Shown one piece after another: positions 1 through 63,203 of a DNA stretch of 64,000 nt. The position numbers and the translations under genes are program-made. The notes below the pieces were generated by a model. That model had not been told where the DNA came from, made no database searches, and saw nothing but the letters and a program-made list of their open reading frames with translations. Each line of letters begins with the position of its first letter. Position 1 is the stretch's first letter. The stretch is taken from NCBI GenBank assembly GCA_041671645.1, contig JBAZBD010000001.1:85561-149560 (forward strand). Direction: 5' to 3'. Origin of the DNA: Patescibacteria group bacterium. Its GTDB lineage: Bacteria; Patescibacteriota; UBA1384; XYA2-FULL-43-10; 1-14-0-10-43-13.

Positions 1-729
1 ATTCCGATTACCGATGCGCGAGACAGATTCAATCAGATTATTGAAGAAGTCGAAGCCAGCGATGATATGTACGTGGTGACCAAGAACGGCAAACCGTCAG
101 CAATCATCGTCGGTGTCCACCACCTTGAAAAATTGACAGGTAACAAGCTGCCGACAGAGTCATTTTCTGAAGAAAAAACAGATGAACCGGTTGCTAGCGC
201 AACTCCGTCTGCTGATAATATTGACGCAGTTGCACCAATTGATGAACCGATGGAAGAAAAGCCCGTTGACGTAGATTCTTCGGCCTCGGCAGCGACGCCA
301 GTGACCGCCCCAACATCCGATTCTGCAGATATTGATTCGTACAATCCCAAGACAACAGAGGCCCAGGATAATCAAACTGATGACCTTTTCGAAACACCAA
401 AAGACGAAATACTCGCCGCCCCAACCACTTCTACTCCTCCAGTTACCCCAACTGCGCCAGTCGTGCCAGCTCCGGCCGAACCTGTCGCAGCGGCTATAGC
501 CCCAACCGCAGAACCTGCCCCCGTGGCGAAAGAGACCCCAATGACAGCCCCAGCAGAATCAGCTACTTCACCAATTGATGAGCCTCTTCCCGAGGAAAAT
601 CCTGCTTCGACATCAATGCCTTCGACTCCTTTCCCAAATTCTTTCCCCTCGACCATGCCAGCGCCAACACCTCCTGCCACACCAGTCACTCCTCCGACAC
701 CGCCAACCCCACCTGTAACTTCAATTTAA
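1..729 (+). CDS. Phd/YefM-type antitoxin-like domain protein with long Pro/Thr/Ala-rich disordered C-terminal tail (5' end outside window)
   Basis: In-frame translation from base 1 reads IPITDARDRFNQIIEEVEASDDMYVVTKNGKPSAIIVGVHHLEKL, which matches the Phd/YefM fold signature. The remaining roughly 180 aa are a PT/PA-rich low-complexity region (PVTPTAPVVPAPAEP...PPTPPTPPVTSI). Confidence 0.6.
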   Translation: MPITDARDRFNQIIEEVEASDDMYVVTKNGKPSAIIVGVHHLEKLTGNKLPTESFSEEKTDEPVASATPSADNIDAVAPIDEPMEEKPVDVDSSASAATPVTAPTSDSADIDSYNPKTTEAQDNQTDDLFETPKDEILAAPTTSTPPVTPTAPVVPAPAEPVAAAIAPTAEPAPVAKETPMTAPAESATSPIDEPLPEENPASTSMPSTPFPNSFPSTMPAPTPPATPVTPPTPPTPPVTSI

Positions 730-1528: not shown

Positions 1529-2740
1529 TTAGGTTAGTTCCCAGTTTGAATCCACATCAATCTCATCCCAATTCGAAATTTTGCCCTGTTTGATATGATG
1601 ATAAGCCGCCAACCCGATCATAGCCGCATTATCCCCAGTCATGTCTCGAGGCGGAGTCAAAAATTGAATAGTTTTATCTTTCGACTTTATACTTTCAACT
1701 TTCAACTGGATTTGGCTTGCCAGATACTGATTGGCCGAAACTCCTCCAGCGAAAACAACGGTCTTGGGCTGGAACTCCTTGACCGCTCTAGCGGTTTTCG
1801 TCGCCAGTACCTCGGCCACTGCCTCCTCGAAGGCGTACGCAATTTCCTGCTTGATTTCATCTGGAATTTCGGTTGGAGAATTCAAATTCAGTTCTAGGAC
1901 GATATCTTTTGTCTTCTGCAAAACCGAGGTCTTGAGTCCAGAAAAAGAGAAATTATAAGTTCCATCATTCATTACCGGACGCGGGAACACAATAGAGTTT
2001 GGCGTTTGGAGTTTAAAGTTTGGAGTTTCTTCTCCTGACTCCCGGCTCCCGGCTCCCAACCTTCTAAACTCGCAGGCGAGTTTAGAAATCGCTGGTCCCC
2101 CCGGGTAGCCCAGCCCCAGAAGCTTGGCGACCTTGTCATAAGCTTCGCCAACGGCGTCATCGAGTGTCTGACCAAGCGTCTCGTAAATCCCATGATCTTT
2201 CATTAATGTAAGGGACGTATGCCCACCAGAAACAGTCAGGGCAAGAATCGGGAATTGATCATCTGCACTTGATAATTCTCGGCTGAAGGCCGAGTAAATG
2301 TGTCCTTCGATATGATTGATTGGAATTATTGGCAACCCTCTGGCGTAGGCCATAGTTTTCGCTGCATTGAAGCCTACGAGCAGAGAACCGATCAAGCCTG
2401 GCCCAGCGGTGACAGCAATATGAGTAATCCCAGAAAGCTCTTCTATCGCTTCCTGATAATCGGCAGGGCCAACTTCTCGGCCCAATAATAGCGCTTGCGA
2501 GATGACTGGTATAATTGCTTCCATATGAGCGCGACTAGCCACCTCTGGGACGACCCCTCCGGTTTGGGCATGAAGATCAATTTGGGAGGAAATAATATTC
2601 GACAAAATGACAGGTCTAAGGCCTGTCATCCCGGACTTGATCCGGGATCCATCTAATTGCTCTTCAATTACTGCCGCCGCCGTCTCATCACAACTAGTTT
2701 CAATAGCCAGTATGCGAATTTTAGTATTTTTATTATTCAT
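1529..2740 (-). CDS. tsaD: tRNA N6-adenosine threonylcarbamoyltransferase TsaD (Kae1/YgjD family), with low-complexity inserts
   Basis: N-terminus ILAIETSCDETAAAV, plus HIEGHIYSA and GGVSANQYL motifs. It is about 60 aa longer than usual because of repeat-encoded inserts. Confidence 0.9.
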   Translation of the reverse strand: MNNKNTKIRILAIETSCDETAAAVIEEQLDGSRIKSGMTGLRPVILSNIISSQIDLHAQTGGVVPEVASRAHMEAIIPVISQALLLGREVGPADYQEAIEELSGITHIAVTAGPGLIGSLLVGFNAAKTMAYARGLPIIPINHIEGHIYSAFSRELSSADDQFPILALTVSGGHTSLTLMKDHGIYETLGQTLDDAVGEAYDKVAKLLGLGYPGGPAISKLACEFRRLGAGSRESGEETPNFKLQTPNSIVFPRPVMNDGTYNFSFSGLKTSVLQKTKDIVLELNLNSPTEIPDEIKQEIAYAFEEAVAEVLATKTARAVKEFQPKTVVFAGGVSANQYLASQIQLKVESIKSKDKTIQFLTPPRDMTGDNAAMIGLAAYHHIKQGKISNWDEIDVDSNWELT

Positions 2741-2898: not shown

Positions 2899-3885
2899 AT
2901 GTTTCCACCTACCCGCTCTACCTGTTATAATTGTGACATGAACAATATCTTCCAATCCAAAGAGTGGGAGCAGTTTAAACTTGCTACCGGTTACCAGAAG
3001 AGCTACTGGGTTGGTGATATTTTGGTCCTGCAGAAAAATCTGCCCCTAGGCTATTCAATGCTGTACGCGCCGATGGCGAATAGCGAATCTGGAATCTGGA
3101 ATCTAGAATCTGGAATAAAAGAATTTTCGAAACAGATAAGAGAAATAGCGAGGCAAAATAATAGCATTTTCTTTCGCTTGGAGTTTAATGTCCCTGTGGC
3201 TGGACCAAATTCAAAATTCAAAATTCTAGATTCCCGCTTTGGTTTTGCCAAAGCGTTCGAGGAAATGCAGCCAGAGCACACTCTCTTGCTTGATCTCTCC
3301 AAAACAGAAGAGGAATTGCTCTCCGAGATGAAGCAAAAGGGACGCTATAATATCAAAGTGGCAAGCAAAAACGAGGTTAAAATTCATTTTGGGACTAGCC
3401 CTAATGACATCGATAGCTTTTACAATCTTTACGAACAAACAGCCAAACGACACGGCATCACCCATCGAGCCAAAAAATATTTCATCCAGCTAGTTGAAAT
3501 CCTCTCGCAAAAAGGTTACTGTCGTGTTTATACGGCCAAGAAAACGATTGGGGGCAAGGAAACGGATCTGGCCGCTATGATTATGGTTTATTCTGGAGAG
3601 ACCGCGATCTACATGTTTGGCGCCTCAAACGATGACTTCAAGAACACGATGGCGCCGTACCTGATGCAATGGACCGCAATCAGGGATGCGAAAGAAGAGA
3701 AATACAAGAAATATGATTTCTTCGGCATCGCACCAGATGATAATCCAAAGCATCCATGGGCCGGCGTGACCAGGTTCAAACAACAGTTCGGCGGACAAGC
3801 AGCCCAAATTGCCGGTAGCTATGACTTGATCATACAGCCTACGGCCTATCAATTATTTAAAATTGCAGAGAAAATCAGACGATGA
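2899..3885 (+). CDS. FemAB-family peptidoglycan interpeptide-bridge aminoacyltransferase
   Basis: GRYNIKVASKN, AAMIMVYSGETAIYMFGAS and YLMQWTAIRDAKEEKYKKYDFFGI match the FemABX family. Confidence 0.7.
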   Translation: MFPPTRSTCYNCDMNNIFQSKEWEQFKLATGYQKSYWVGDILVLQKNLPLGYSMLYAPMANSESGIWNLESGIKEFSKQIREIARQNNSIFFRLEFNVPVAGPNSKFKILDSRFGFAKAFEEMQPEHTLLLDLSKTEEELLSEMKQKGRYNIKVASKNEVKIHFGTSPNDIDSFYNLYEQTAKRHGITHRAKKYFIQLVEILSQKGYCRVYTAKKTIGGKETDLAAMIMVYSGETAIYMFGASNDDFKNTMAPYLMQWTAIRDAKEEKYKKYDFFGIAPDDNPKHPWAGVTRFKQQFGGQAAQIAGSYDLIIQPTAYQLFKIAEKIRR

Positions 3886-5485: not shown

Positions 5486-6445
5486 CTATTTTTTGCCATG
5501 AAACTTCTGGTGCACTTCTCGCAGGTGCTGGTCGGTCACATGAGTATAAATTTGGGTCGTGGTGATTGATGAGTGGCCAAGCATAGATTGGACACTTCGA
5601 ATATCGGCACCATTGATTAATAGATCGGTTGCAAAAGAATGACGCAGAGTATGAGGCGTGCATTTTTTGGTTATGCCGGCCAATCCAGCGTACTTCTTTA
5701 CAATTCGCTCTATCGAACGAACGGTCAATCTCTCTCCCTTGGGCGATAATAGTAAAGGGTCGAGTGTCGGAGTGTCGGAGTGTCGGAGTGTCGGAGCTTC
5801 TGGCCTCTCTGCCTCTCCGCCTCTGTGCCCTTTGTTTTTATCATACTGATCTATCCAATACACCGCTGAGTCAGAGAGGAAGACAACTCTGATTTTTTTA
5901 CCCTTGCCCAGGACCGATATTTCACCCCGATCGAAATTGATGTCAGAAGTATCGAGCGCCGCCAGCTCAGAGACGCGCATACCAGTCGAGAATAGAACTT
6001 CTAATATTGCTCTGTCACGAAGACCAGTCACTTTGGTCGTATCAGGCTTCTCTAATATTCCAGAGACTTCTTCGCCTCCCAGGAAGCTGATTTCGCGATC
6101 CCCAGTCTTGGCGACGGGCACTTTCTCTGGCGCTAATGTCTCGATCCCGCGCCAGGAAAGATAGCGCAAGAACGCCCGCAGGGCCAAAATGTGATAATTT
6201 TGAGTAATCAATTTTAGTTCTAATCCCTCTTGGTCGGTCAGACGATTGACATGCAGGCGATATTTGCGCACGATTTCCTGAGTAATATTTGCTGGAGTCA
6301 GCTCCGCCCCAGAATTATTTTCCGCAAGATAGTCCAAGAATCGGGAAATATATCGATCATAATTTTCAATTGTCAGAACAGCCCGACCCTTTTCGAGCTC
6401 ACAATGTTCTAGAAATTGTCTTTTGAGTTCTTGCAGCGAAGCCAT
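5486..6445 (-). CDS. xerD: Tyrosine recombinase XerC/XerD family
   Basis: HTLRHSFATDLLINGADIRSVQSMLGHSSITTTQIYTHV catalytic region with an N-terminal core-binding domain. The likely start is MASLQEL at 6445. It contains a tandem-repeat-encoded insert. Confidence 0.85.
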   Translation of the reverse strand: MASLQELKRQFLEHCELEKGRAVLTIENYDRYISRFLDYLAENNSGAELTPANITQEIVRKYRLHVNRLTDQEGLELKLITQNYHILALRAFLRYLSWRGIETLAPEKVPVAKTGDREISFLGGEEVSGILEKPDTTKVTGLRDRAILEVLFSTGMRVSELAALDTSDINFDRGEISVLGKGKKIRVVFLSDSAVYWIDQYDKNKGHRGGEAERPEAPTLRHSDTPTLDPLLLSPKGERLTVRSIERIVKKYAGLAGITKKCTPHTLRHSFATDLLINGADIRSVQSMLGHSSITTTQIYTHVTDQHLREVHQKFHGKK

Positions 6446-6483
6446 GATTGATAACTTTATACTTTTAACTTTATAGCTAGTTT

Positions 6484-7095
6484 CTAATCCACGTCCCATT
6501 TGTGTTCGTTGTTGTGAACAAGCCAGTAAGCCACGATGCCGGAGGAGATGCCAAGGAAGGCACCGGCCAGGACGTCAGATGGATAGTGTAGCCCTGCCCC
6601 CACACGTCCGGCCCCAACCAGAATTGCCAGGAGAAACAATACCATCCCAAGTCTTTTGTGCCCATAGAGAAATATGCTGGTGGCGATGGCAAAAGCAACA
6701 TAAGTGTGAACTGAGGGAAATGAGACGCTATAGACCCGAAGCCCCTCAATAATTGGCGTCATTACTTCGCTGCTATGGCTGATGAATGGTCTCGGCCGGC
6801 GCCAAAAAAGCGCTATTGCAAGATCGACAAATCCGGCGATTGCCATAGCGGCAAATGTACAGTAAAACGCATTTACTTTGCCCCGCAGGATCAGATAGAT
6901 ATAGGAGAGAAAGAAAAATATGATGCCATATTTGGCACAGAAAAGATAAATCTCGTTTAGCCATGGCCGTCCGTGGATAGCACCATGGAAGAAGAGATAG
7001 GTCTGGTAGTCATAGAATCTGGCTGTATCAAATAAATGTTCCATGACATTATTATACAGGACTGGCTTTCGTCTACCAACTTTTGATAAAATCAC
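6484..7095 (-). CDS. PAP2-family phosphatase (undecaprenyl-diphosphatase/phosphatidic acid phosphatase type 2-like)
   Basis: PAP2 motifs: K...RP (FWRRPRP), PSVH (FPSVHT) and SR...H...D-like (GRVGAGLHYPSDVLAG). The true start may be internal (MEHLFD). Confidence 0.7.
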   Translation of the reverse strand: MILSKVGRRKPVLYNNVMEHLFDTARFYDYQTYLFFHGAIHGRPWLNEIYLFCAKYGIIFFFLSYIYLILRGKVNAFYCTFAAMAIAGFVDLAIALFWRRPRPFISHSSEVMTPIIEGLRVYSVSFPSVHTYVAFAIATSIFLYGHKRLGMVLFLLAILVGAGRVGAGLHYPSDVLAGAFLGISSGIVAYWLVHNNEHKWDVD

Positions 7096-21790: not shown

Positions 21791-24700
21791 TTGAGGGATG
21801 TGAAGAAATTTTTGCAAAAATTTGTGTTCACGCTGGTTGCGCTGATTTTGGTGTTGAACCCATATATCGAGCTCATCCCGACAGATTACTTCTCCAGCAA
21901 GGCCAAAGCGGCGATCAACGATATCCCTGATCCAGAGATCGCGTCAACCGATGAGAGCGATCATGATTATGAGGAGGAAGTAGATAGCGATTACACCCCA
22001 GAATACTCTCCGAATTTCATCCCCGACCCAGTCAAAGATGCCTTCTCCCTCGTGGTGACTGATACCACTGAGACCTTTACTGATCTTACCAGCACGAGCA
22101 GTCTGCTTGAAGATATTGGTGATGCCAAAATCATCCTGACCCAGAGTGATTTTGACGCGATCAAGGCCCTTCGTTGCATGAAGAATCTACTCCCGCCATT
22201 CGCCGAGAACATGTCAAAACTCTATGAGTTTACGATTCCCGAGGGTATCATTAATTCTAACGAACAATACAAAAACTTCCCAGCCAAAGAGGAAATTGAC
22301 GATGCAGTCTCTAGTGAGGGATCTCAAGCGACGCCAAGATTCGGCACACCCGAAGAATACCTCTCCTATCTCAAATACGGAGACTCTGGCGACCCGCTCC
22401 TCACCACAAACCAGAACAAGGAAAAATTTGTTAACTATGTTGATTCAGCCAAAGCATATTACGGCGACGATCGCTTAAGGGCAGACTGGCTTGCGCAAAT
22501 CGACAACCTTGCAGAGAACAAAACTCTCGATACCGATATAAATACTCTAGCTTGCGTCACTCGGATTACTGACGCAGAACAGCTGATGGCTCTGATTCGA
22601 GAAAGCAAAACTGATGAGACCAAGCGACAGTACTTGCTCGACAGAATCAATGAGAGTCTAGACGGACTCAAGATTGACATCCGCGCAGTCAAGGCCCTGA
22701 TTTATTTGGTTACGCCTAAGAACAAGGGAGGCGCTGGACACTGGAGAATCCGCGTCAAGAAATTCCTCCAAACTGGCCGCAAATCAGGTGAGTCTGATGC
22801 GTTGCTGACTGGAGCCGCCAAAACAGTGAACTGTGATCCGGCCAAATCCGCCGCTGAATGCGGCATGGCTCAGTACCAACCGGGCGAGGCGACGATAGAA
22901 GAGAAAGATGGTAGCGCCTACACTGCCTATCTAGAGTCTATGAACGACGGTGAGCAAAATGATTCAATGCACCAGCAGGGTCAGGCTATTGATATTTCTG
23001 AGATTGACGACATAAGATGCACGATACGGAAAGAGGTTAAGCAGTGGGGAAATGTTAAGGGCCAGAACACTCCTCAACCAACAAGACCAATTAAGTTGGC
23101 CTGGCAGACTACAGAAGGGTTCAACAAATCAGAGGGTGCCAATGACTTTGATATGATGTCTCTTATCAAATCGATGGCGACCTCCGAGGTGGTCGACTTC
23201 CTGGGCTCGATCAACGAGACTGATATGTCTGACTATGAGGGCGACCTGACCAGAGCCAGTTTTGGAGATCTAGTCAACGTAGTGGGCAAGTCCCTAATGA
23301 CTGAAATTCTCGCTTCGCCTGATCATAATTTGAAGGGCTATAGCACCGACAGCACTCTTAGAAACCTGGGTGGTATCTATATCGCTGACTATCTCGGGAT
23401 TAATCGAAAATTATTTACAGACAAACATATCAACACTCCGGGAGATCTCTTCTATGAAATCGGCCGCGGCGCGATCGAGACTCGGATGAAATTGCCTCTC
23501 AACTCACTCGACACGACCAATCCTGCCGTGCCCCTCTTCTCGACCTTGGCCCAGACAGGAACTAGGAAATTGGAGTATGAATTGGGGCTAGCCAACGGAG
23601 ATCTGGCGCGCCTAGACCCAAACTCGGTTGCCAGCATCTATATTGGCGCCCGTGTGATCGAAGGAACGCTTAATTTCAAGAAATTCGTTTGGCCAAGCCA
23701 GGACAAGCCATTTGCTGAGTTTGCCAGCACAGCAGAGGGTCTGAATTGGTTTGATCTGCTTCGGCTCAGCCCAGACACAATCGACATGATGCTTCACCTG
23801 AAGTCTGGTGTGACTGAAGCCTTGGTCAAGGGCAAGACCTTGACTCCGGCTCAGTATGACAAAATGATGAAGTTGCCCGAGGGCACGACGACAGAGTCAG
23901 TCAAGATGAACTCGGACCGATACGCTAGTATCGTTGGGCAAGTTAGATTGGATGAGACAACTTTTGGCTTTCAATACTTCGCCGCCAACGATGCCGCCTT
24001 CTCCTTGCCAACTGGGCTCTGGGCTGAGGTAATCAAATTTAGCCCAGATACTTTGCAACAGAGCCTCGCTGAAGTCGGAATTTATACGCTCTCTCGACTA
24101 TTCGGCGAAGATGATGCTTCTCCTTTGCCAAAGCTAGAAGTGGGAGAGCAGGTTGTCAGTATCCAGACCCATGAGTACGGCAAGGATGTAACTTTCCAGG
24201 CAAATGATGGTAACTTTGGTCGCTGGGTATTCCGAAGTTGGCTTCGAGACAACCTAACCAAATCAACCGAAGAGGCTTGTCAGGCGCCGGCCCGTCCGAT
24301 TGAGGTTGATGTTTCCTTTGATCAAGCTGGCGCTCAGCAGCCAAATCCAAACAGTCTGCTAGATGTTCAAGCAACTTTTGGAACCAATGTATTCAAACCG
24401 GTCAGTCTAGCTCTAGACTACCAAGTCACCTATAATCCAGCCGCCAATGGCATACCACAGCCTTCGAAAACGCTGACCAAAGACGTCTCTGAGATTAGAC
24501 CAATTTCCGAAGAAAAGGCAACGAAATATGGCTTTGTAAATCGAGACTTACAAAGAATCTTTGGCTGTGCATCAGCCAATGGGCGTGATGTCTACCAGCG
24601 GATAGGCTCTGAGCTCCTCTACACCGCCCTGATCAACCAGGCGCTGAGCGAGACTGACCGCGCCAAGATTGACATTATGGACACCGATCCTACAATTCAT

Positions 24701-27700
24701 GTTGCCAACGAAGAGATCAACTTCTACATCCAACGCATCTTCTATATTAAGAAATTGCTTGGACAGATCGACACCCAATACGGCTCAATCGTATCTGAGG
24801 GCAAAGACGACATTAAATCTTTTGTAGATCTTTCGAAACTATCTTATGACCAGCTCAAACAGGTATATGGAGACCTGACCAATCTCCAACTGTTCTCCAT
24901 CAGCAAAATAGCCGCTACCGCCTCACAGACTATGACCGATATCGACACGCTAAAACAGGTGGCCTCCGATTGGAAAGAGTACATGCGGACACGAAGGGCA
25001 GACTTGGTCGGAGATATAGCTGCCGTCAATCAGATTGTTTATCTCGTCAACGAGCTTTGGACCACTATTGCCGAGCTCGATCGTGGCAAGGCTATTAATG
25101 GTGTTGATCGTATTAAATTTCAGCAGATTGATTCTACTCCGCTACAGGAAGTCGTAAACCAGGACAGAAGACAGCAAGCACAAGAGAGATCAGACTCGGC
25201 CAAGAAAAAGGGCCTCTCTGCTTGGCAGGTTGCACAGATGATGTTCGACTGGATTGCCGGTACGATCACTTCCTCCGAGCTCTTTTATCGCCTGGGCGCC
25301 AACTCGATCGAAGCTAACATCGGCCTTCCGCCCAATAGCCTAGTCTACCTAGTCCGCAATTATGACCAAAATGGCATATCTGGCCTCGACGCCTTTTATC
25401 AATCGGTTGGCCAGGCCAGGATTGAGGAAAATTTTGGCATGCCCGCCTTCTATTTCCAGGGCAACTTTGATGCCCAGGCCAAGCCCAACTTCCAATCTGA
25501 CCTGAAGGCAGTCTACAACATGATTACGACGGATTCTGTGCTTAAGCACGATTATCCCGATCTGGCCGCACTATCCGAAGCAGACTTCCTGAAGTATATG
25601 GATAGCCTGCTCACGGCGCCGATGCTCGATTATGCCGCCGATCCCTGGATACAGCTTATCAGGACCCCCGGTAGTCCATATTCGATCAGTAGTGAGCCCA
25701 AGACCCCAGGTGATGATCTCAATGCCTACAAGGCCTTCTACAAGAAAATCGCCGATAGTCAAAAAGCTTATACCAAGAGCACGGCTCATTGGCAGGCAAT
25801 TGTTGACAATGTCGACAAACGTTGGAAAGCCAAGCGCGCCAGTGATGTCAAGGGATTGGGCAGTAGCAAGTACAGCGAATCAACAGTCCAAGACATCGTA
25901 GCAAATATCAAACAGCGCTGCTTCACTGGTGTAAACAAAGCTCAAGCGGATGGTACAGTGAAATGTCTCAATATGACTCGGTCCCCCGAGGATGATCTCC
26001 TTTTCCGTATGGGTCTCCCGCGTGGAAACTTTAACGCTATGACCGCAGAGAATTCAGTCAACAACACGTCCCTCTGGACTCGACTAGCAGGCACTACTCA
26101 GTCAATCGAGCAGGGATTCACAATCGATCAAAACGCGATCAAAGCCCTCTTTACCGGAGAAGATACTCGCTATATTAATCTTTCCCGAAAAGAGAAGCAG
26201 GTGGTCGAGGGTTCTGCTCTCAAAATCAATACCAACGTACTAAGTTTCTACGCTCAGATGCTTAATGGTGAGGTTCTGCCCAACGACACAGATCAGTATA
26301 ATTTGGACACTTGGACTCAGTACTACGTCAGCAACCCGTATGCACCGAAACAGCAAGCCAGTGAGACTTGCCCAGTTCTTTATTTGCCAAAAGGTGACGC
26401 AAGCGGCACCTTTATGGTCAATGAGACTACCCTTGAAAACAATTCATACTGCTATTATGACGCCAAGGGAAGACACTGCTTCAAGAGTTGGGATGAAGCC
26501 CAGCGCTATGCCATTGCCCACGAAGCCGACTCGATAAGACATCTGAAAGTCGTGATAGACGGCAAAGAGCAGGAAATTAGCAACAATATTCTGGGATATC
26601 TTGCCAATCAACTTGTTCTGGCCAACAATGCCGCTTTACCTGACCAAGCGACCACAGATGCCGCCGCAAATGCAAATGTCACCATCCATGGAACTATCGA
26701 ATTAAATCTGAGTGATGTCTACGCAGGACTGGTCAGATTTGTGAATGACAACTCGATGGTCGATATCTTTGGGGATAAGAACAAGAGTATAGCCATGATT
26801 TCGGCCATCGCTGGCTCGACGACTGTGCCGGCTAGTATACTAGAAAAGCTTTTTACTCGTGAACCGAGCGTAAATTCCGTCGCCACTTTCAAGAAGAAGG
26901 TTGGTGTCAAGGAAGCACAAAAAGTTGTCACTTACCAAATTTTTGGAGCTTTGCAACTTGGCCTCGCCGTTGGGCCGGACTACTTCGACGCAGGCGACCT
27001 CTATGATGTCTTGAACGGCGACTACACTGCGCTGACCAACATCGCGACCAATTATATTGATCTGAAGGCTGAGCTGAAGCCTGGCACAACACGTCTTCTC
27101 TACGAAGCTCGCAATCCAGAATCAATTACTTGCGCCCTCGCCCAAGCTGGTGGCTCAATGCTCGGTCGGATCTTTGGCCTCAACAATATTCCGCTCAATG
27201 GGATCCAAAACGTCTCATCATTTAAAGAAGCGGTCGGTCAAGCCAAGGTCGAGGAGACCCTCTCCCTGCCTCGAGGTACCTTCAGGGGCAACAATCTGTA
27301 TGAACTGCTCGACAATGTCGGACCGATCAACTTCATGATCGCCTTTAAGATACCGGTTGACCCATCAGTTGCGAATGGGATTTCTGACGATATCGACAAG
27401 ATACTCAACTCCAACACTAGCTACTCTCAGGGAGCCAATTTGGCCTATCGCTTGACTCGGGTAAGAGATGTTCTCTCGACTCGCAATATTCTTCAAAGTG
27501 ATATTGGCACAGCCATCGCCAATATCAACAGCGCTCTCAAAAATTATTTCATCAATGATCTGCTCAAACAATTTGAAAATGATCCGACCAAGATCCAAGT
27601 TGCCCTGTCGGCCCGTAATCAAAACAATAGAGATTGGTATTATGCGGTCCAGGATTTCTATCAGCAGACCAGTTCACTGGACAAAACTTTTGCGGTCAGC

Positions 27701-30700
27701 AACGGTAGCACTTATCAGCTTCTAACCAACTCGATCAAGCCAAAAACCTATATCAATCGAATTGGCGAGAATCTCATGGTCACTGCCGCCATTTCCAACG
27801 CCGCCACTCTGCTTGGGATTTCCGACGCGAAAGTTCAGGCAGCAGCCGGCGTCCTGGGTGCAATCAAGAACAATTTTGTCTGCGAGAAAAGCAAGATCAT
27901 CACCAGAGATAATTATCCATCAAACGGCGTTTCTGACGGACATTTTCTCTACGATGTGCAAGTAAACAATATCAAAAATGACTACTGGGAACAGTATCTC
28001 AGAACCGGCAAACATACTTATGACGATGTTGGCTTTCCCGTCTTGGTTTATGATGAGGTTGGCGCTGCAATCGGCTACTGTAGCGATGACACTTATGGCC
28101 AATTCGGCGAACTGTATACCAATCTTAATACCCTCTTCGGCTTCAATCTTGATGACAGGATGAATTTGCCGGAAGGCACGATCAGCAAAGTTCTATCTGA
28201 CCCCGACCACATCGTCGATAATATATTGAATATCGGACTCAGCAAACTTGACCAACAACTTGGACTTGACTATACCGTGGACGGTTCTTTCTCATTCAAT
28301 GGCTTCTGGAAAGCGACCTTTTACAAGGACGGCCAGAAGAAGGACGCAGAGAGAGAAAAAATCGACAGAAAGTGCTACAGCCAAAGTTATCCAGGGGGGA
28401 CAGACGTCGCCATCAAAACTCAGTATGACGCTGCCAACAACGATATTAAGCGATTGCTCGGAGAGTGGCCGGCCCGAGGAGCTTCACGGATCGAGGGCGA
28501 AAATTACCAGCAGTACTCGCAGAGAGTAACTTCTCAAGCCACTTTGGACGCCACTCACACTACTGAGATGCGGGACGCTTGGGTTAGCGATTGGGAAAAA
28601 TACAATCAGCAGGCTAACACTGCTAGCGGCAATATTACTATCCAAAACAATGCCTTTAATCAATGTAAGCTCGACAACAGGAAGCCAGTAAGTAACGCGG
28701 CGTTACGAGCAGATATTCTTGACTACGCCACCGGCCAACTTGTCACTTTGACTGGCAAACTACTGCGAGACGTTGTCGTTACGATTCCTGATTGCCAAAA
28801 CAATCGCGCCGCTTATCTTGACGGGGCAGGCAGCTATGACCCCGTTCTCTCCAACCAGCTTGATTATTTCGGCCAGCCTATTGGCTATGAAGAGTGCAAA
28901 GCCAAGGTCGGTGTTGTTGTTCCGAGAGAAGATTTGAAAGCACTTATCCAGGGCGACCTTCGCTATCTTTCCCCGATTGCCATGACAATCGCTTCAAACA
29001 TCGCCATGATACCGGTAGACATGTGGGGCACGGATAACTGCAATCCAGACGCCGATGGCCGATGTGAGAGTGCCGTTCCACCTCAATTCAAGCTCAGTTA
29101 CAACGACTACAAATATGCCATTTTTGGCAACGCTCAGTCCGACCAAGCGGCTCGGGACGTCGCCGCTTATAGTCACTTCAACTTAATTGAAAAAAACCCT
29201 GACGGCGTACGCATCAACTCAGGGCCGGAGTATCCTGTCTCTACTGATCCCTTCGACACGGGTCTTGGCATACTTTCAGATACCAGGGTGGCAAAAGTAG
29301 CGAATCAACCTGGCAGAGAGATTATCAACAACAAGACTGATATCTACACACAATACGGCTATACCCCAAGTAGTGCCGAGGCTGTCGATGCAATCAGCCA
29401 ACGAGCCGATTTGCAAAACAGCGTGGCCGACTTTGAAAACGCTTGCGGCATCAAGTATGGGCTTATCAGCAACAGCGCGGCGACTTGCCACAATGGGTCA
29501 CCAGAGTTTGCGGCCTATATTTCAGATAGAACTCAATTAACCGCACTAAGAGATAGGGAGACTGCGATTCTAGGCGAATCAAAGAACCTCTACCGAAACA
29601 ACTTGATGTACAAGGCGATAGACATAGCCGCCTGGAAACTTGATGGCAACGCCTATCCTGGATTTGCTCGCGCAATCGCAATCGGCACTCCCAAAATGAA
29701 GGCAGAGGCCCTTGTCACTTATCTCAAGATTGGTGCTCAGAGAGGCCATCTCTTCGGCATGGATTTCAGAGCAGTCAAAGATATCGAGCAGTGGGCCGGG
29801 GCCGCTCAATTTCTCTACGAGGCTGGGCAAAATATTCTTCGCGATACGGATACGTTTGACCCCCTAAGCACTCTTGCCAAGAATCCTAGCGCTCGATATT
29901 TCATCCAAGATTTTATCGTCTCTCGCTCAAAGGCCTGGTTTGGCTTCGAGATCCAACCAGACATGGCTGAGGGTATTATAGTCGGCATTGGTACTATGGG
30001 CTCAGCCGACCATCCTTGGGGCAATTGGGGGATCAAGGATGTCGGCATCGACAAAGTTTTTGAGGACCCGAACAACACGGGCGTCACTATTAATGTTGGA
30101 GGAGACAAGACAGTCCAGATGAAGACTCTGGGCGGAGCAACACAAGAGTATCTGGTCGACCGTCTTTTCTCCTGGGCCGACACCAAACTTGGTCTCGAGG
30201 CAGGCACTTCCTTCAAGCTCGCCAAGGGCATATATGACGCTTTCACTGCTTACGGCAAAGTATCTGCCGCCATCAAGGCCGCCAAGCTGGCTGGTTGGGT
30301 TGTGCCAAACTTGCCTCATACTGCCGCTGGCCTGGAAGCGATAGCCGACACTCTTTTCGATAAAGCAGACGCGTTAGCTTTGGATATAACAGACGCAGAA
30401 CTTTCGGCAAGCCTAACAGGGGCTGACGCTAACCAAATCGTTTATGAGAATACCGGATTTGATGGCGTAGACGCAGGAGAAAAAGCTGCCGAGGATGCCA
30501 AAGCTGCCTCTAAGACTATAAATACCGAGGGAACCAAATTCCAAGCTGCCAAAGACCTTGTTGCGGCCATAATCATTGAAATCTTAATTGGTAAAGCGCT
30601 TGGCAAAATCGTGGCCGGTTGGGAACAGGATCTTGGTATGATCCCTGGCACTCTGATGCCACTGGTTTCTGGTATTGTCACTTTCGTGTTTATCTTCGTC

Positions 30701-31282
30701 TGGAATACGGTGATGGCCACGATTGGAGCGGAGGTATTAATGCTATCCCAGGTGCCAGGACTTCAGTGGCTTGCTATAGCAATAGCCGTCATCGGTTTCA
30801 TTGGTGGGATGCTCTTTAGCACTAAATATTTCTACTGGTGTACTGCCGATGGATACTACCCAAGAGTTGGGTCTTTTGATTACAACAAGGACGTGGGTGG
30901 ATTTGGAGAAATAGGCGGACGAATCGATCGCGGCGCAGCCTTCTTGGGACCGCTCATGGCAACTTATGGCGTGAAAGTGGCACAATACAAAGCTCGCCAA
31001 TTGGTTGGCGACATGCTGGCTCTGCAAAACTCTCCTCGATTCAAAGATTCATATGGCGACGATATCGTACCAATCCAAATCATGACTGGTCGCAAAGTTG
31101 ATGTTGATTTCTGGAAAGAGAGCATTGATACCAATATGTGCAAGAAGATGCTTGATGAAGATTACATCGCCTGTGACGGCATGTGCGGCAAAGCGACTAG
31201 CGATGGCGGCTGTGTCAGTACTTCCCGTATGGGCGTCTGGGCCAATCCACAAACGATAGGCTGGACGCATATTGGATTTTAG
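21791..31282 (+). CDS. Giant (3163 aa) membrane-anchored surface protein
   Basis: Single uninterrupted ORF with an N-terminal hydrophobic signal/anchor and a C-terminal cluster of TM helices (GIVTFVFIFVWNTVMATIG, LQWLAIAIAVIGFIGGMLF). No recognisable catalytic motif; it is in an operon after the T4SS genes. Confidence 0.7.
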   Translation: MRDVKKFLQKFVFTLVALILVLNPYIELIPTDYFSSKAKAAINDIPDPEIASTDESDHDYEEEVDSDYTPEYSPNFIPDPVKDAFSLVVTDTTETFTDLTSTSSLLEDIGDAKIILTQSDFDAIKALRCMKNLLPPFAENMSKLYEFTIPEGIINSNEQYKNFPAKEEIDDAVSSEGSQATPRFGTPEEYLSYLKYGDSGDPLLTTNQNKEKFVNYVDSAKAYYGDDRLRADWLAQIDNLAENKTLDTDINTLACVTRITDAEQLMALIRESKTDETKRQYLLDRINESLDGLKIDIRAVKALIYLVTPKNKGGAGHWRIRVKKFLQTGRKSGESDALLTGAAKTVNCDPAKSAAECGMAQYQPGEATIEEKDGSAYTAYLESMNDGEQNDSMHQQGQAIDISEIDDIRCTIRKEVKQWGNVKGQNTPQPTRPIKLAWQTTEGFNKSEGANDFDMMSLIKSMATSEVVDFLGSINETDMSDYEGDLTRASFGDLVNVVGKSLMTEILASPDHNLKGYSTDSTLRNLGGIYIADYLGINRKLFTDKHINTPGDLFYEIGRGAIETRMKLPLNSLDTTNPAVPLFSTLAQTGTRKLEYELGLANGDLARLDPNSVASIYIGARVIEGTLNFKKFVWPSQDKPFAEFASTAEGLNWFDLLRLSPDTIDMMLHLKSGVTEALVKGKTLTPAQYDKMMKLPEGTTTESVKMNSDRYASIVGQVRLDETTFGFQYFAANDAAFSLPTGLWAEVIKFSPDTLQQSLAEVGIYTLSRLFGEDDASPLPKLEVGEQVVSIQTHEYGKDVTFQANDGNFGRWVFRSWLRDNLTKSTEEACQAPARPIEVDVSFDQAGAQQPNPNSLLDVQATFGTNVFKPVSLALDYQVTYNPAANGIPQPSKTLTKDVSEIRPISEEKATKYGFVNRDLQRIFGCASANGRDVYQRIGSELLYTALINQALSETDRAKIDIMDTDPTIHVANEEINFYIQRIFYIKKLLGQIDTQYGSIVSEGKDDIKSFVDLSKLSYDQLKQVYGDLTNLQLFSISKIAATASQTMTDIDTLKQVASDWKEYMRTRRADLVGDIAAVNQIVYLVNELWTTIAELDRGKAINGVDRIKFQQIDSTPLQEVVNQDRRQQAQERSDSAKKKGLSAWQVAQMMFDWIAGTITSSELFYRLGANSIEANIGLPPNSLVYLVRNYDQNGISGLDAFYQSVGQARIEENFGMPAFYFQGNFDAQAKPNFQSDLKAVYNMITTDSVLKHDYPDLAALSEADFLKYMDSLLTAPMLDYAADPWIQLIRTPGSPYSISSEPKTPGDDLNAYKAFYKKIADSQKAYTKSTAHWQAIVDNVDKRWKAKRASDVKGLGSSKYSESTVQDIVANIKQRCFTGVNKAQADGTVKCLNMTRSPEDDLLFRMGLPRGNFNAMTAENSVNNTSLWTRLAGTTQSIEQGFTIDQNAIKALFTGEDTRYINLSRKEKQVVEGSALKINTNVLSFYAQMLNGEVLPNDTDQYNLDTWTQYYVSNPYAPKQQASETCPVLYLPKGDASGTFMVNETTLENNSYCYYDAKGRHCFKSWDEAQRYAIAHEADSIRHLKVVIDGKEQEISNNILGYLANQLVLANNAALPDQATTDAAANANVTIHGTIELNLSDVYAGLVRFVNDNSMVDIFGDKNKSIAMISAIAGSTTVPASILEKLFTREPSVNSVATFKKKVGVKEAQKVVTYQIFGALQLGLAVGPDYFDAGDLYDVLNGDYTALTNIATNYIDLKAELKPGTTRLLYEARNPESITCALAQAGGSMLGRIFGLNNIPLNGIQNVSSFKEAVGQAKVEETLSLPRGTFRGNNLYELLDNVGPINFMIAFKIPVDPSVANGISDDIDKILNSNTSYSQGANLAYRLTRVRDVLSTRNILQSDIGTAIANINSALKNYFINDLLKQFENDPTKIQVALSARNQNNRDWYYAVQDFYQQTSSLDKTFAVSNGSTYQLLTNSIKPKTYINRIGENLMVTAAISNAATLLGISDAKVQAAAGVLGAIKNNFVCEKSKIITRDNYPSNGVSDGHFLYDVQVNNIKNDYWEQYLRTGKHTYDDVGFPVLVYDEVGAAIGYCSDDTYGQFGELYTNLNTLFGFNLDDRMNLPEGTISKVLSDPDHIVDNILNIGLSKLDQQLGLDYTVDGSFSFNGFWKATFYKDGQKKDAEREKIDRKCYSQSYPGGTDVAIKTQYDAANNDIKRLLGEWPARGASRIEGENYQQYSQRVTSQATLDATHTTEMRDAWVSDWEKYNQQANTASGNITIQNNAFNQCKLDNRKPVSNAALRADILDYATGQLVTLTGKLLRDVVVTIPDCQNNRAAYLDGAGSYDPVLSNQLDYFGQPIGYEECKAKVGVVVPREDLKALIQGDLRYLSPIAMTIASNIAMIPVDMWGTDNCNPDADGRCESAVPPQFKLSYNDYKYAIFGNAQSDQAARDVAAYSHFNLIEKNPDGVRINSGPEYPVSTDPFDTGLGILSDTRVAKVANQPGREIINNKTDIYTQYGYTPSSAEAVDAISQRADLQNSVADFENACGIKYGLISNSAATCHNGSPEFAAYISDRTQLTALRDRETAILGESKNLYRNNLMYKAIDIAAWKLDGNAYPGFARAIAIGTPKMKAEALVTYLKIGAQRGHLFGMDFRAVKDIEQWAGAAQFLYEAGQNILRDTDTFDPLSTLAKNPSARYFIQDFIVSRSKAWFGFEIQPDMAEGIIVGIGTMGSADHPWGNWGIKDVGIDKVFEDPNNTGVTINVGGDKTVQMKTLGGATQEYLVDRLFSWADTKLGLEAGTSFKLAKGIYDAFTAYGKVSAAIKAAKLAGWVVPNLPHTAAGLEAIADTLFDKADALALDITDAELSASLTGADANQIVYENTGFDGVDAGEKAAEDAKAASKTINTEGTKFQAAKDLVAAIIIEILIGKALGKIVAGWEQDLGMIPGTLMPLVSGIVTFVFIFVWNTVMATIGAEVLMLSQVPGLQWLAIAIAVIGFIGGMLFSTKYFYWCTADGYYPRVGSFDYNKDVGGFGEIGGRIDRGAAFLGPLMATYGVKVAQYKARQLVGDMLALQNSPRFKDSYGDDIVPIQIMTGRKVDVDFWKESIDTNMCKKMLDEDYIACDGMCGKATSDGGCVSTSRMGVWANPQTIGWTHIGF

Positions 31283-33861: not shown

Positions 33862-34273
33862 TTGTTCTCCTATTCTTACTTATCCCCATTTTGGGGTAAA
33901 CCTGTGTCTAACTTAGTTATTTATATTGTTAAATTATCTTCTTCCAGACTATCTTATTTCGCTGAATCTTTTTGGTTGTGGAAAAGTGCAATTTATCACC
34001 AATTCGTTGTGAACAATCCCTCAAGTTATCAGCACTTTCTTTTGACTTTCAACTTTCAACTTTCAACTTTTGAGGTTCTCCCCATCTTTTCCCTAAGTTA
34101 TACCCCCGCTCTTTCCACAGCTTAGATAGGTAATAAGCTTCTCTAGCAATGGCTTATTTGACTTATCCCCTCTGTCCACACCCCTTATTACTACTACTAT
34201 TTATAAAGCATATTGTATATCTAACCCAAAAGGTTTGGATCCCAGTTCAAGCCTGGGATGACACCAAGGGGTG
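33862..34273. promoter_or_regulatory. Candidate oriC segment (dnaA-dnaN intergenic) with multiple DnaA-box-like 9-mers and embedded CAACTTT tandem repeat
   Basis: DnaA-box-like 9-mers are TGTGGAAAA (33977), TTATCACCA (33993), TGTGAACAA (34008), TTATCAGCA (34026), CTTTCCACA (34111) and TGTCCACA (34174). The region is AT-rich. Confidence 0.6.
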
Positions 34274-55944: not shown

Positions 55945-56640
55945 TTATAACTCGTCTTTGAGGATGTCGTCGAGCTCTTCGTTGAGCTTAGATAGACGCT
56001 CAGCTTCGTCAGCTGGCTCTTTCTTCTTCGCAACTTTGCGAACTGGCTTAACTTCTTCTTTTACTTCTACAACTGGTTTCTCTTTGACAACTTTTTCTTT
56101 TTTGACTGGTTTGATTTCAGCCTCAACCTTTTCAACCTTAACTTCAGGCTCCTCTGTCTCTTCTTCAGGACTTTCAACTTTCGACTTTGGACTTTCAACT
56201 TCCGTGGCTTCTTCTTTTTCTTCTCTTACGGCCATGAGATCACGACTCTGCTCTGTCTCACCTTCGATTGCCTCAAATGATTTGTGGCCAATCAGGGCTT
56301 CGATCTCTTCGGTTCCTGCAATTTCGTCCTGTGTCAATGTGATTGTCTGGTCTCCGTAATCTTTGACCATCATCAATTGGCGAATGACAGTAGTTTCAAG
56401 TCTAATCTCTCTCTCGAGCTCGCGAGCCTTGTCGGCTGGAAGTGAAAAATAGATAGTAACGTAAGTTGCAAAGTCCTGCTTTTTGATCGTATAGCAGAGT
56501 TTGCGCCGTCCCCAAATGTCCTCTTTGCTGATTTTGCCGCCGAGACCATTAATAAGACCTGCAATTTTGCCGGTCACTTTGTTCAAATCTGTCTCGCGTA
56601 CTTCATCAGAAATCATGTACGTAAGTTCGTACTGTCTCAT
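55945..56640 (-). CDS. rpsF: 30S ribosomal protein S6 with long acidic/lysine-rich C-terminal extension
   Basis: MRQYELTYMISDEV...GKISKEDIWGRRKLCYTIKK is the bS6 core. It is followed by a roughly 120-aa E/K-rich tail that contains a GACTTTC-type tandem repeat. Confidence 0.85.
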   Translation of the reverse strand: MRQYELTYMISDEVRETDLNKVTGKIAGLINGLGGKISKEDIWGRRKLCYTIKKQDFATYVTIYFSLPADKARELEREIRLETTVIRQLMMVKDYGDQTITLTQDEIAGTEEIEALIGHKSFEAIEGETEQSRDLMAVREEKEEATEVESPKSKVESPEEETEEPEVKVEKVEAEIKPVKKEKVVKEKPVVEVKEEVKPVRKVAKKKEPADEAERLSKLNEELDDILKDEL

Positions 56641-62204: not shown

Positions 62205-63203
62205 ATGGAAAAGAAAACACTAGTATTGATAGATTCGAACGCGATAATTCATCGCGCTTATCATGCTTTGCCCAAGACGATGTCGACGCGCAAAGGCGAG
62301 CTGACCAATGTTGTCTACGGTTATACCACGACTTTAATCAAAGTTTTGGAGGATTTGAAGCCTGACTACATTGCTGCTTCGTTTGATGTCTCAAAAAACA
62401 CCTTTCGACTGGCAGAATATGCCGAGTACAAAGCCCATCGGGTCAAAGCCGATCAGGAGCTATATGATCAAATCCCTCGAGTCAAGCAATTATTGAACGT
62501 CTTGAGCGTTCCGATATATGAGTTGGAAGGATTTGAGGCTGATGACGTCATCGGCACGATTGCACATATTTGTCAGGAGTCAGGAGTCGGGGGTCAGGAG
62601 AATGGCTCCAAACTCCAAACTCCAAACTCCCTGCATATTTACATCGTGACGGGGGACAAGGACGCATTTCAATTAGTCGACGGTAACATTGAAGTTTATG
62701 ATTTGAAACACGGTCTATCTGACGCACAGATTGTCAATTCGACGGTGATCAAGACGCTCTGGAATTTGGATCCTTACGACTTCATCGATCTCAAGGCTCT
62801 GGCCGGCGATCCCTCTGACAACATCCCGGGCGTGCCAGGGATTGGGCCCAAGACTGCAACTCTTCTTTTGCAAAAATATGACACGTTAGTAGATATATAC
62901 AAGAGAATCGACGAGGGCCTGGAGCTCGACGTTAAACCCAGAATTCTTGGCTTGCTCAAGGAGTACAAAGAGCAAGCATTTCTCTCCCAGCGACTCGCCA
63001 CCATCCGCAAGGACGTACCGCTTGATTTCAAACTGGAAGATTGCCAATGGGGGGACTATGATAAGGATAGCGTCAGGGACTTTTTCGAAGAAATGCAGTT
63101 TAACTCACTGCTTCGACGATTCGGAGCGATCAAAGGCGACATGCCCAAGACCGAGCAATCAAAAGAACAAAAGAAGCAAGATGATCAATTAAAATTGTTA
63201 TAG
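62205..63203 (+). CDS. 5'-3' exonuclease (Pol I N-terminal/FEN-like, stand-alone)
   Basis: LVLIDSNAIIHRAYHALP, GFEADDVIGT, and the H3TH region GDPSDNIPGVPGIGPKTA. It contains a tandem-repeat-encoded insert. Confidence 0.85.
   Translation: MEKKTLVLIDSNAIIHRAYHALPKTMSTRKGELTNVVYGYTTTLIKVLEDLKPDYIAASFDVSKNTFRLAEYAEYKAHRVKADQELYDQIPRVKQLLNVLSVPIYELEGFEADDVIGTIAHICQESGVGGQENGSKLQTPNSLHIYIVTGDKDAFQLVDGNIEVYDLKHGLSDAQIVNSTVIKTLWNLDPYDFIDLKALAGDPSDNIPGVPGIGPKTATLLLQKYDTLVDIYKRIDEGLELDVKPRILGLLKEYKEQAFLSQRLATIRKDVPLDFKLEDCQWGDYDKDSVRDFFEEMQFNSLLRRFGAIKGDMPKTEQSKEQKKQDDQLKLL

Follow-up and report, generated by a model that had tools for sequence, protein, structure and literature searches.

Repetitive extragenic palindromic (REP) sequences and bacterial interspersed mosaic elements (BIME) are short imperfect extragenic palindromes, which occur in many copies, are linked to a RAYT transposase gene and are not made up of heptad arrays. 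Short imperfect palindromes are likewise present in a 64,000-nucleotide stretch of DNA, hereafter the window, of a Patescibacteria group bacterium (GenBank assembly GCA_041671645.1, contig JBAZBD010000001.1, positions 85,561 to 149,560 of the forward strand), but here both copies are located inside open reading frames (ORFs), namely those of a stand-alone 5′-3′ exonuclease and of the tRNA N6-adenosine threonylcarbamoyltransferase TsaD. Each copy is composed of two neighbouring arrays of heptanucleotide (heptad) units, an arrangement referred to below as the composite. A parallel is provided by the Rickettsia palindromic elements (RPEs; Ogata et al. 2000), which the relevant part of a review (PMC10969869) describes as in-frame palindromic repeats in housekeeping genes. 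As in the RPEs, short palindromic repeats lie in frame in unrelated housekeeping genes and add an extra peptide at fold-compatible positions. The RPEs, whose host is a reduced-genome bacterium, are, however, ~150 bp in size, fall into families within which both sequence and peptide are conserved, and are not tandem heptamers, whereas the inserts described here are 57-63 bases long, comprise two heptad arrays and vary in unit sequence between genomes and sites. As their size, build and sequence differ from the RPE descriptions, the inserts are not members of an RPE family.

The individual arrays resemble the bacterial heptanucleotide simple sequence repeats (SSRs; Mrazek et al. 2007, cited in PMC4692102 and PMC4679880), which the passages dealing with them describe as tandem 7-base units, usually in 2-6 copies, and which include the cyanobacterial STRR, the GGGAATC repeats of Xanthomonas and Nostoc and the TAACTGA repeats of Beggiatoaceae. 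According to these passages, period 7 is strongly favoured, inverted pairs are formed occasionally and the coding orientation is limited by stop codons, as for TAACTGA. Among the long simple repeats of bacteria, heptamers show the strongest over-representation, which has been ascribed to polymerase slippage (PMC4692102, PMC4679880). Each block of the composite is a member of this heptanucleotide simple-repeat class. The SSRs of the same passages are, however, mainly intergenic single arrays, whereas the arrays found here are paired in two blocks, lie in frame in essential genes and occur in Patescibacteria and Omnitrophota. The composites can further be compared with the template-switch mutagenesis of quasi-palindromes (Ripley; Lovett; PMC7202029, PMC8794818, PMC13100816), in which the arms are made complementary and are extended by polymerase copying of the opposite arm. 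Hairpins are created and maintained by template switching via multi-base compensatory changes (PMC8794818, PMC13100816), as are also observed among the HisF inserts discussed below, but this mutagenesis is known for point mutation and hairpin maintenance and has not been described for heptad ladders or recurrent 20-codon protein inserts. Recent nucleotide tandem repeats that add intrinsically disordered segments to ORFs are also described in the pertinent part of PMC9879509, where they are tandem direct repeats of the archaeal extrachromosomal elements termed Borgs. By contrast, the unit here has seven bases and the two blocks are inverted, and with a 7-base unit the reading frame is kept only by the total length. 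A literature search, for which the searched library was incomplete, returned no paper dealing with heptanucleotide repeats of the Candidate Phyla Radiation or with heptad hairpins that lie in frame; a paper on repeats in Gracilibacteria concerns a 9-mer PTD repeat and is unrelated. Paired, in-frame, hairpin-forming heptad inserts are seemingly undescribed but widespread.

The first host gene (62205-63203, forward strand) encodes a 332 amino acid exonuclease (Pfam 5_3_exonuc_N; e-value: 9.6e-47 and 5_3_exonuc; e-value: 1.2e-30), which by its Pfam domains and its alignment to the 5′-nuclease domains of DNA polymerase I (Pol I) is a flap-endonuclease domain of the Pol I type. Its left heptad array, delimited like the other arrays with Tandem Repeats Finder (TRF), extends from 62572 to 62600 on the forward strand (GTCAGGA GTCAGGA GTCGGGG GTCAGGA G, in the GGAGTCA phase; period 7, 4.1 copies, with GTCGGGG as the third unit). 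It is followed on the same strand by the loop AATGG (62601-62605), which is the hairpin loop in both the RNA and DNA minimum-free-energy folds, and by the right heptad array (CTCCAAA CTCCAAA CTCCAAA CTCC; 62606-62630; 3.6 copies, 100% matches), which encodes SKLQTPNS. The complete composite (62572-62630) is translated as CQESGVGGQENGSKLQTPNSL. In an alignment with the Pol I 5′-nuclease domains 6vde and 1taq, 15 extra residues fall exactly at the composite, while the AlphaFold model (mean predicted local distance difference test score, pLDDT: 84) has a low-confidence segment at residues 128-140, between helix 112-125 and strand 143-149, which coincides with the insert. The exonuclease copy, the one to which this cross-check applies, was recovered in an independent Logan assembly of run SRR18595301 (L001; L and P numbers denote loci and proteins in the comparisons), and as such is not an assembly artefact.

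The second host gene, tsaD (1529-2740, reverse strand; 403 amino acids; Pfam TsaD; e-value: 2.9e-78), carries on its coding strand the left array GGAGCCG GGAGCCG GGAGTCA GGAG (2032-2056; TRF: 2039-2057, period 7, 2.7 copies), in which the exact 11-mer GGAGTCAGGAG is found at 2032-2042. The loop AAGAA (2027-2031), placed by sequence and fold, separates it from the right array ACTCCAA ACTTTAA ACTCCAA ACGCCAA ACTCT (1994-2026; TRF: 1995-2028, 4.9 copies, 77% matches), which encodes TPNFKLQTPNS and is more degenerate than its exonuclease counterpart. The composite (1994-2056) is translated as LGAGSRESGEETPNFKLQTPNS and adds ~20 residues, visible as an alignment gap, relative to solved TsaD structures; residues 233-243, which form a low-confidence segment of the AlphaFold model (mean pLDDT: 85), coincide with it. 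Both composites are in-frame insertions into unrelated ORFs at permissive positions and, judging by the models, the inserts presumably sit in disordered loops of conserved enzymes. The nearest named homologs of both proteins belong to Berkelbacteria and Patescibacteria metagenome-assembled genomes. The tsaD gene also harbors a second in-frame insert at 2600-2665 (reverse strand; codons ~27-42; peptide LDGSRIKSGMTGLRPV), consisting of two adjoining perfect hairpins (GGATCCCGGA..TCCGGGATG and ATGACAGG..CCTGTCAT; RNA z-score: -2.98) in a region of low model confidence (pLDDT: 54). Its peptide, of the GSRIKSGMTG type, recurs at the same place in the TsaD orthologs P0122, P0127, P0138 and P0140.

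On the coding strand of both genes ~4 GGAGYCR heptads are followed by a 5-base loop and then by 4-5 heptads of the AAACTCC type. The initial annotation had pointed out the AAACTCC-type array in the exonuclease gene and tsaD, which direct reading locates in both, and had taken it to mark a common inserted element rather than independent slippage. It had not linked to this the GGAG-type left array that tsaD also bears, and it is the whole two-block architecture that is common to the two genes. The combined pattern GGAGTCAGGAG-N(3-22)-CTCCAAACT has two matches in the window and none in 100 dinucleotide-preserving shuffles of it, while the exact 11-mer GGAGTCAGGAG, and also ACTCCAAACTCC with at most one mismatch, are confined to the two loci within the 64 kb. 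Exact GGAGTCAGGAG and exact ACTCCAAACTCC, each present twice in the window, are both absent from 1.30 Mb of sequence from 80 related Patescibacteria genomes. Since the unit type is absent from these 80 relatives, the two window copies appear to be related, and sequence comparison makes a shared origin inside this genome more likely than two draws made independently. L028 likewise contains two composites of one type in different genes. Identical units make up 4.1% of array pairs within a locus and 1.3% of those between loci, a modest enrichment, and the two window copies themselves differ in loop, unit number and unit sequence.

The peptide KLQTPNS is indeed common to both genes, as the initial annotation had stated, with 19 of the 21 underlying bases identical between the copies and the two differences synonymous, but it does not constitute separate evidence. 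The repeat (ACTCCAA)n is translated into the cyclic heptapeptide TPNSKLQ in all three frames, and because 7 and 3 share no factor, KLQTPNS is forced on any two ORFs that cross this repeat on this strand. In the reverse orientation, (TGACTCC)n contains a TGA in every frame; a strict forcing of the orientation by stop codons has nevertheless to be softened, as each window copy leaves one reverse frame out of three open. With a cyclic peptide and a reverse orientation that is largely closed by stops, neither the identity of the peptides nor their common orientation adds anything beyond the DNA identity. What stands of the proposed common element is that the copies are not independent coincidences, given that they share the two-block architecture, its order and the rarity of the unit. 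Its opposition to slippage probably does not stand, slippage being more likely a part of the mechanism than an alternative to it.

Both window composites belong to an inverted type, which folds into a ladder of 4-6-bp helices with internal loops of 1-2 bases between them. The exonuclease composite has a predicted RNA fold of -29.9 kcal/mol (z-score: -4.27), with none of 200 shuffles as good, and a DNA fold z-score of -3.22; among other composites, z-scores of -6.75 (L084) and -4.40 (L113) were obtained. The insert has no family match in Rfam, the only matches at gathering score in the window being four tRNAs. The right unit of the exonuclease composite is the reverse complement of its left unit, except for two bases that would spell TGA. 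In eight of 12 coding composites the exact complement of the left unit, when repeated, gives an in-frame TGA or TAG stop (the stop-bearing complements being TGACTCC, TTAGAAA, GAAAATT, GAACTAT and GAGCTGT), and in these eight the observed right unit departs from the complement exactly at the stop positions. The observed right units of all 12 are stop-free, the stop-free fraction of heptamers being 69%.

An empty version of the exonuclease site is available for comparison. The closest relative of the protein (P0002, from L002/L003; 91% identity) lacks the insert, as does the next relative (L004; 76%). The exonuclease copy is therefore recent, and its right block is still a perfect repeat. The L003 site reads TTTGAAGGCAGTCAGGACATGCATG (GGCAGTCAGGACATGCAT), with one GTCAGGA where the window has four, and contains nothing like the CTCCAAA block. 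The insertion signatures that the initial annotation had looked to at the flanks were not encountered: alignment of the filled and empty exonuclease sites reveals no target-site duplication or terminal repeats, the left flank being one seed heptamer and the right flank C(A/C)TGCAT, neither of which is duplicated. The single GTCAGGA already present at the empty site points to local seeding or microhomology, and not to cut-and-paste insertion. Presence or absence of the insert differs between the window and L003, while no unit-number variants at one site were seen.

Nine exact period-7 arrays are found in the window, compared to 0.1 in shuffles and 0-3 for other periods. In 1.37 Mb of Patescibacteria loci, from ~80 genomes, 203 arrays have period 7, while 85, 38 and 16 have periods 6, 8 and 9, respectively. 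In 43 pairs of adjacent arrays, partners related directly and partners related by inversion are each enriched approximately twofold over random pairs. As partners may be related either directly or as reverse complements, at least two sub-types of paired array can be distinguished, and the direct type among these pairs rules out that all paired arrays are inverted. The exonuclease loop in question, which lies between the EADD and GDKD motifs, holds paired heptad arrays, usually 4+4, in many orthologs, including (AATCCGA)x4 + (AAATTCA)x4 in L008 and (CAAGATA)x4 + (AATACGT)x4 in L009; further orthologs with paired arrays in this loop are those of L081, L022, L028, L016, L011, L030 and L015. The syntenic tsaD orthologs are similarly filled at the same site by composites of other units, with (TTTCTAA)x4 - ACAATCCC - (CAAATTC)x4 in L083 and (AATTTTC)x4 - AAACAATTCC - (CAAAATT)x4 in L084, and by inspection the TsaD inserts of the window, L083 and L084 show compensatory arm changes.

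Other repeats were also observed in the exonuclease orthologs. In L014, L037 and L049 the loop contains a palindromic repeat of another kind (CHSREGGNL...DSRFRGNDG; GTCATTCCCGCGAAGG...CCCGCTTTCGCGGGAATGAC), not heptads, indicating that this loop accepts several kinds of repeat DNA. A second hypervariable site is situated between the H3TH region and the C-terminal helices (columns 313-400 of alignment A1; window ~62900-62910). It is empty in the window and occupied by 10-70 residues in many orthologs, with peptides such as HSERSEES, VISTDLSF and SLDYARDD that resemble translated palindromic repeats.

The same composite could be identified in other bacteria. A metagenome scan with the two-block pattern returned 40 matches, 19 of which have at least 3+3 in-phase units beyond the pattern, most often 4+4. 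The metagenome composites have A-rich loops and are located on contigs of 39-67% G+C. Ten of them lie in frame and in the same orientation in conserved enzymes, namely PheS (two orthologs), HisF, a class II ribonucleotide reductase, LpxB, a molybdopterin oxidoreductase, a GltD-like protein, a tetrapyrrole methylase, a 2-oxoacid:ferredoxin oxidoreductase subunit and a DUF1015 protein. The host of the HisF composite is Candidatus Omnitrophota, in which an insert-free hisF allele (P0244; 93% identity outside the gap; AIDAKKHDGNW) exists beside many alleles with 20 additional residues, and the insert length is identical across orthologs sharing 75-87% identity. Four HisF inserts are co-linear at the DNA level and their arms differ in a correlated way (GGAGT/ACTCC, TAGT/ACTA and AGCT/AGCT). 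In the five-rung HisF ladder 81% of the cells are paired, a share that drops to 30-44% on sliding the partners by 1-3 columns; changes on both sides are seen in six pairs, and none of 500 shuffles reaches the observed pairing or co-variation score.

The composite pattern has no match in 2.9 million viral contigs, on which ground a phage origin was rejected, although each single array occurs there. The single arrays in these contigs comprise 18 (CTCCAAA)n loci, many of them adjoining boxes similar to TTATCCACA, and 78 (GGAGTCA)n arrays, of which nearly all are unpaired. In the viral loci L087, L089, L093, L094 and L099-L101, (AAACTCC)x2.6 is found between a conserved hairpin and clusters of DnaA-box-like TTATCCACA / TTGTCCACA boxes, a setting that looks like a replication-origin context and is probably unrelated to the coding composites. 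In L153, L173 and L198, GGAGTCA/GGAGACA heptads were observed both in long runs and in many separate arrays, with a Shine-Dalgarno-like AGGAG core in each unit.

We consider that there is an even chance that quasi-palindromic heptad inserts of this kind are generated by replication slippage together with template switching, and not by a classical transposon. Both window segments would then be copies of one kind of small quasi-palindromic heptad-repeat insert, built of ~4 left GGAGYCR units, a short A-rich loop and ~4 right AAACTCC units, in which the right heptad would be the reverse complement of the left save for bases that would otherwise spell an in-frame TGA. The left block may grow by replication slippage, for which heptamers are the favoured bacterial unit, while the right block would arise from, and owe its continued complementarity to, intramolecular template switching (quasi-palindrome correction). 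Selection would retain only stop-free, in-frame versions in tolerant loops, and spread to new sites probably needs no transposase but proceeds by template switching that starts where a site shares a short microhomology with an existing copy. The inserts may be passengers without a cellular job, contributing 15-20 low-confidence residues to surface loops of essential enzymes, and would persist because the loops tolerate them, because their length is frame-locked (multiples of 3 bases, e.g. 3 units = 21 bases) and because the units are stop-free. It is the simplest account to cover at once the seed heptamer at the empty site, blocks that are equal in unit number, arms that co-vary and flanks without a target-site duplication. 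One of the host genes encodes a flap exonuclease, and loss of the yeast counterpart, Rad27/FEN1, has been linked to template-switching mutations (PMC5677150).

Several observations weigh against a combination of slippage and template switching. The common direct type, (AAATCCG)n-AAACAAAT-(AAATTCA)n, does not fold, and template switching can therefore not explain the whole class of paired arrays. The tsaD composite itself folds weakly (z-scores: -1.6 for RNA and -1.9 for DNA). In four of the 12 coding composites the arms are mismatched where no stop would arise, so that stop avoidance, which fits only the other eight, is rejected as the cause of every arm mismatch and forms only part of the explanation. 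The HisF co-variation is derived from four sequences, in which the units within an array are not independent, and is therefore supportive and not conclusive. Neither a switch point nor an intermediate, for instance a solitary left array, was seen at the insert sites, and as such the order of events is one that we infer. The copy counts in the window cover 64 kb of the 868-kb source contig. Finally, composites that are regularly of 4+4 units, have similar A-rich loops and recur as one sequence type across phyla resemble a discrete element more than random slippage.

A discrete element is indeed what the best-surviving alternative, which we regard as unlikely, would require: a genuine mobile mini-element, of the miniature inverted-repeat transposable element (MITE) or RPE-like kind, preformed at ~60 bases and served by an enzyme encoded elsewhere, with the window copies as two insertions. 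The presence of one composite in two genes of a single genome and its absence from 80 relatives would be expected of such an element, as would the two same-type composites in different genes of L028, the regular size and loops in unrelated genes and phyla and the repeated, independent striking of permissive loops in orthologs, and the in-frame palindromic elements of Rickettsia offer a precedent (PMC10969869). However, the insert is flanked by no target-site duplication and has no conserved termini beyond the repeat units, its first heptamer is already present at the empty exonuclease site, and the copies vary in both unit number and unit sequence, with the unit at one site differing from genome to genome. 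Furthermore, none of the 2.9 million viral contigs contains the composite, and no transposase candidate turned up, although no scan of the window ORFs was aimed at transposases. Equally doubtful in our view is that the composites are self-propagating, transposase-free heptad-ladder mini-elements which, as a broad equivalent of the RPEs, settle in permissive loops of essential genes among ultra-small bacteria, including Patescibacteria and Omnitrophota, with the ladder of 5-bp rungs kept through a replication/repair or RNA-binding factor with a 7-base periodicity.

Independent in-situ slippage at each locus, the shared unit reflecting convergence or chance among stop-free, slippage-prone heptamers, appears quite improbable. 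Heptad arrays are common and diverse in the lineage, the empty exonuclease site already holds a seed heptamer and only 69% of heptamers are stop-free, and with ~1.3% of array pairs from unrelated loci identical, ~0.7 chance matches would be expected among the ~55 pairs in the window. However, the two genes have both blocks in common and in one order, neither the exact 11-mer core nor the 12-mer core has a match in the 1.30 Mb of related DNA, and the combined pattern does not occur in any of the 100 shuffles. Moreover, the empty site contains no precursor of the right array, and an inverted partner array is beyond the reach of simple slippage. It is very improbable that the composite is a selected functional module, benefiting the cell as a ladder hairpin (a translational pause, a 7-base-periodic protein-binding site or a recombination/replication signal) or as a flexible peptide, for although the HisF arms co-vary with strictly conserved insert length among orthologs of 75-87% identity, the exonuclease and L084 hairpins are strong and significant and the paired GAAT/ATTC arrays of a FemAB-like gene (see below) are conserved across three genomes, close relatives manage without the insert and unit sequence is not conserved between orthologs. 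The enzymes concerned are unrelated, and in them the peptides occupy loops that are modelled with low confidence and are presumably disordered. A constant length results from the frame constraint, and template switching by itself would be expected to make the arms co-vary (PMC8794818). The tsaD copy, with 77% matches and a weak fold, is in decay, and no Rfam family is matched.

Additional arrays can be observed elsewhere in the window. The FemAB-like gene (2899-3885, forward strand) contains (GAATCTG)x4.6 at 3085-3116 and (AAATTCA)x3 + TAGATTC at 3207-3239, an inverted pair with 83% complementarity whose members are 99 bases apart, with ordinary coding sequence between them. Arrays with the GAAT/ATTC cores are kept in the syntenic gene of L083 and, more loosely, in that of L084. 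A period-8 composite, CAGAGGCG GAGAGGCA GAGAGGCC - AGAAG - (CTCCGACA)x4, is located at 5762-5829 (reverse strand) in a XerD-like tyrosine recombinase gene (5486-6499), where it encodes HRGGEAERPEAPTLRHSDTPTL, ~13 residues more than in Escherichia coli XerD. Its layout in two blocks is that of the heptad composites, with an 8-base unit, and it has no significant fold (z-score: -0.94). A second recurring unit family in the window, the heptad ACTTTCR, forms four arrays on the forward strand, in the C-terminal end of a DedA/VTT gene (784-816), the C-terminal region of tsaD (1678-1707), an intergenic spacer (34045-34070) and the acidic C-terminal tail of a ribosomal protein S6-like gene (56170-56201; gene at 55945-56640, identified by eye). 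The ORF at 67-729 (forward strand) encodes a protein that begins with a short globular part and continues as a long low-complexity tail rich in Pro, Thr and Ala, and its syntenic counterparts in L083 and L084 are annotated as PhdYeFM_antitox, while a single ORF at 21791-31282 (forward strand) encodes 3163 residues.

Three rules are proposed for these inserts: their blocks comprise 4+4 units, the right arm corresponds to the reverse complement of the left one without its stops, and the arms co-vary. If the slippage and template-switching account is true, the mismatches in the hairpins would be placed in part where stop codons had to be avoided, and the inserts would form a natural record of heptamer slippage and template switching acting jointly under a reading-frame filter. 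Many unexplained extra loops in the proteins of Patescibacteria and Omnitrophota would then represent translated repeat DNA and not adaptations, which would affect annotation, alignment and structure prediction for these bacteria.

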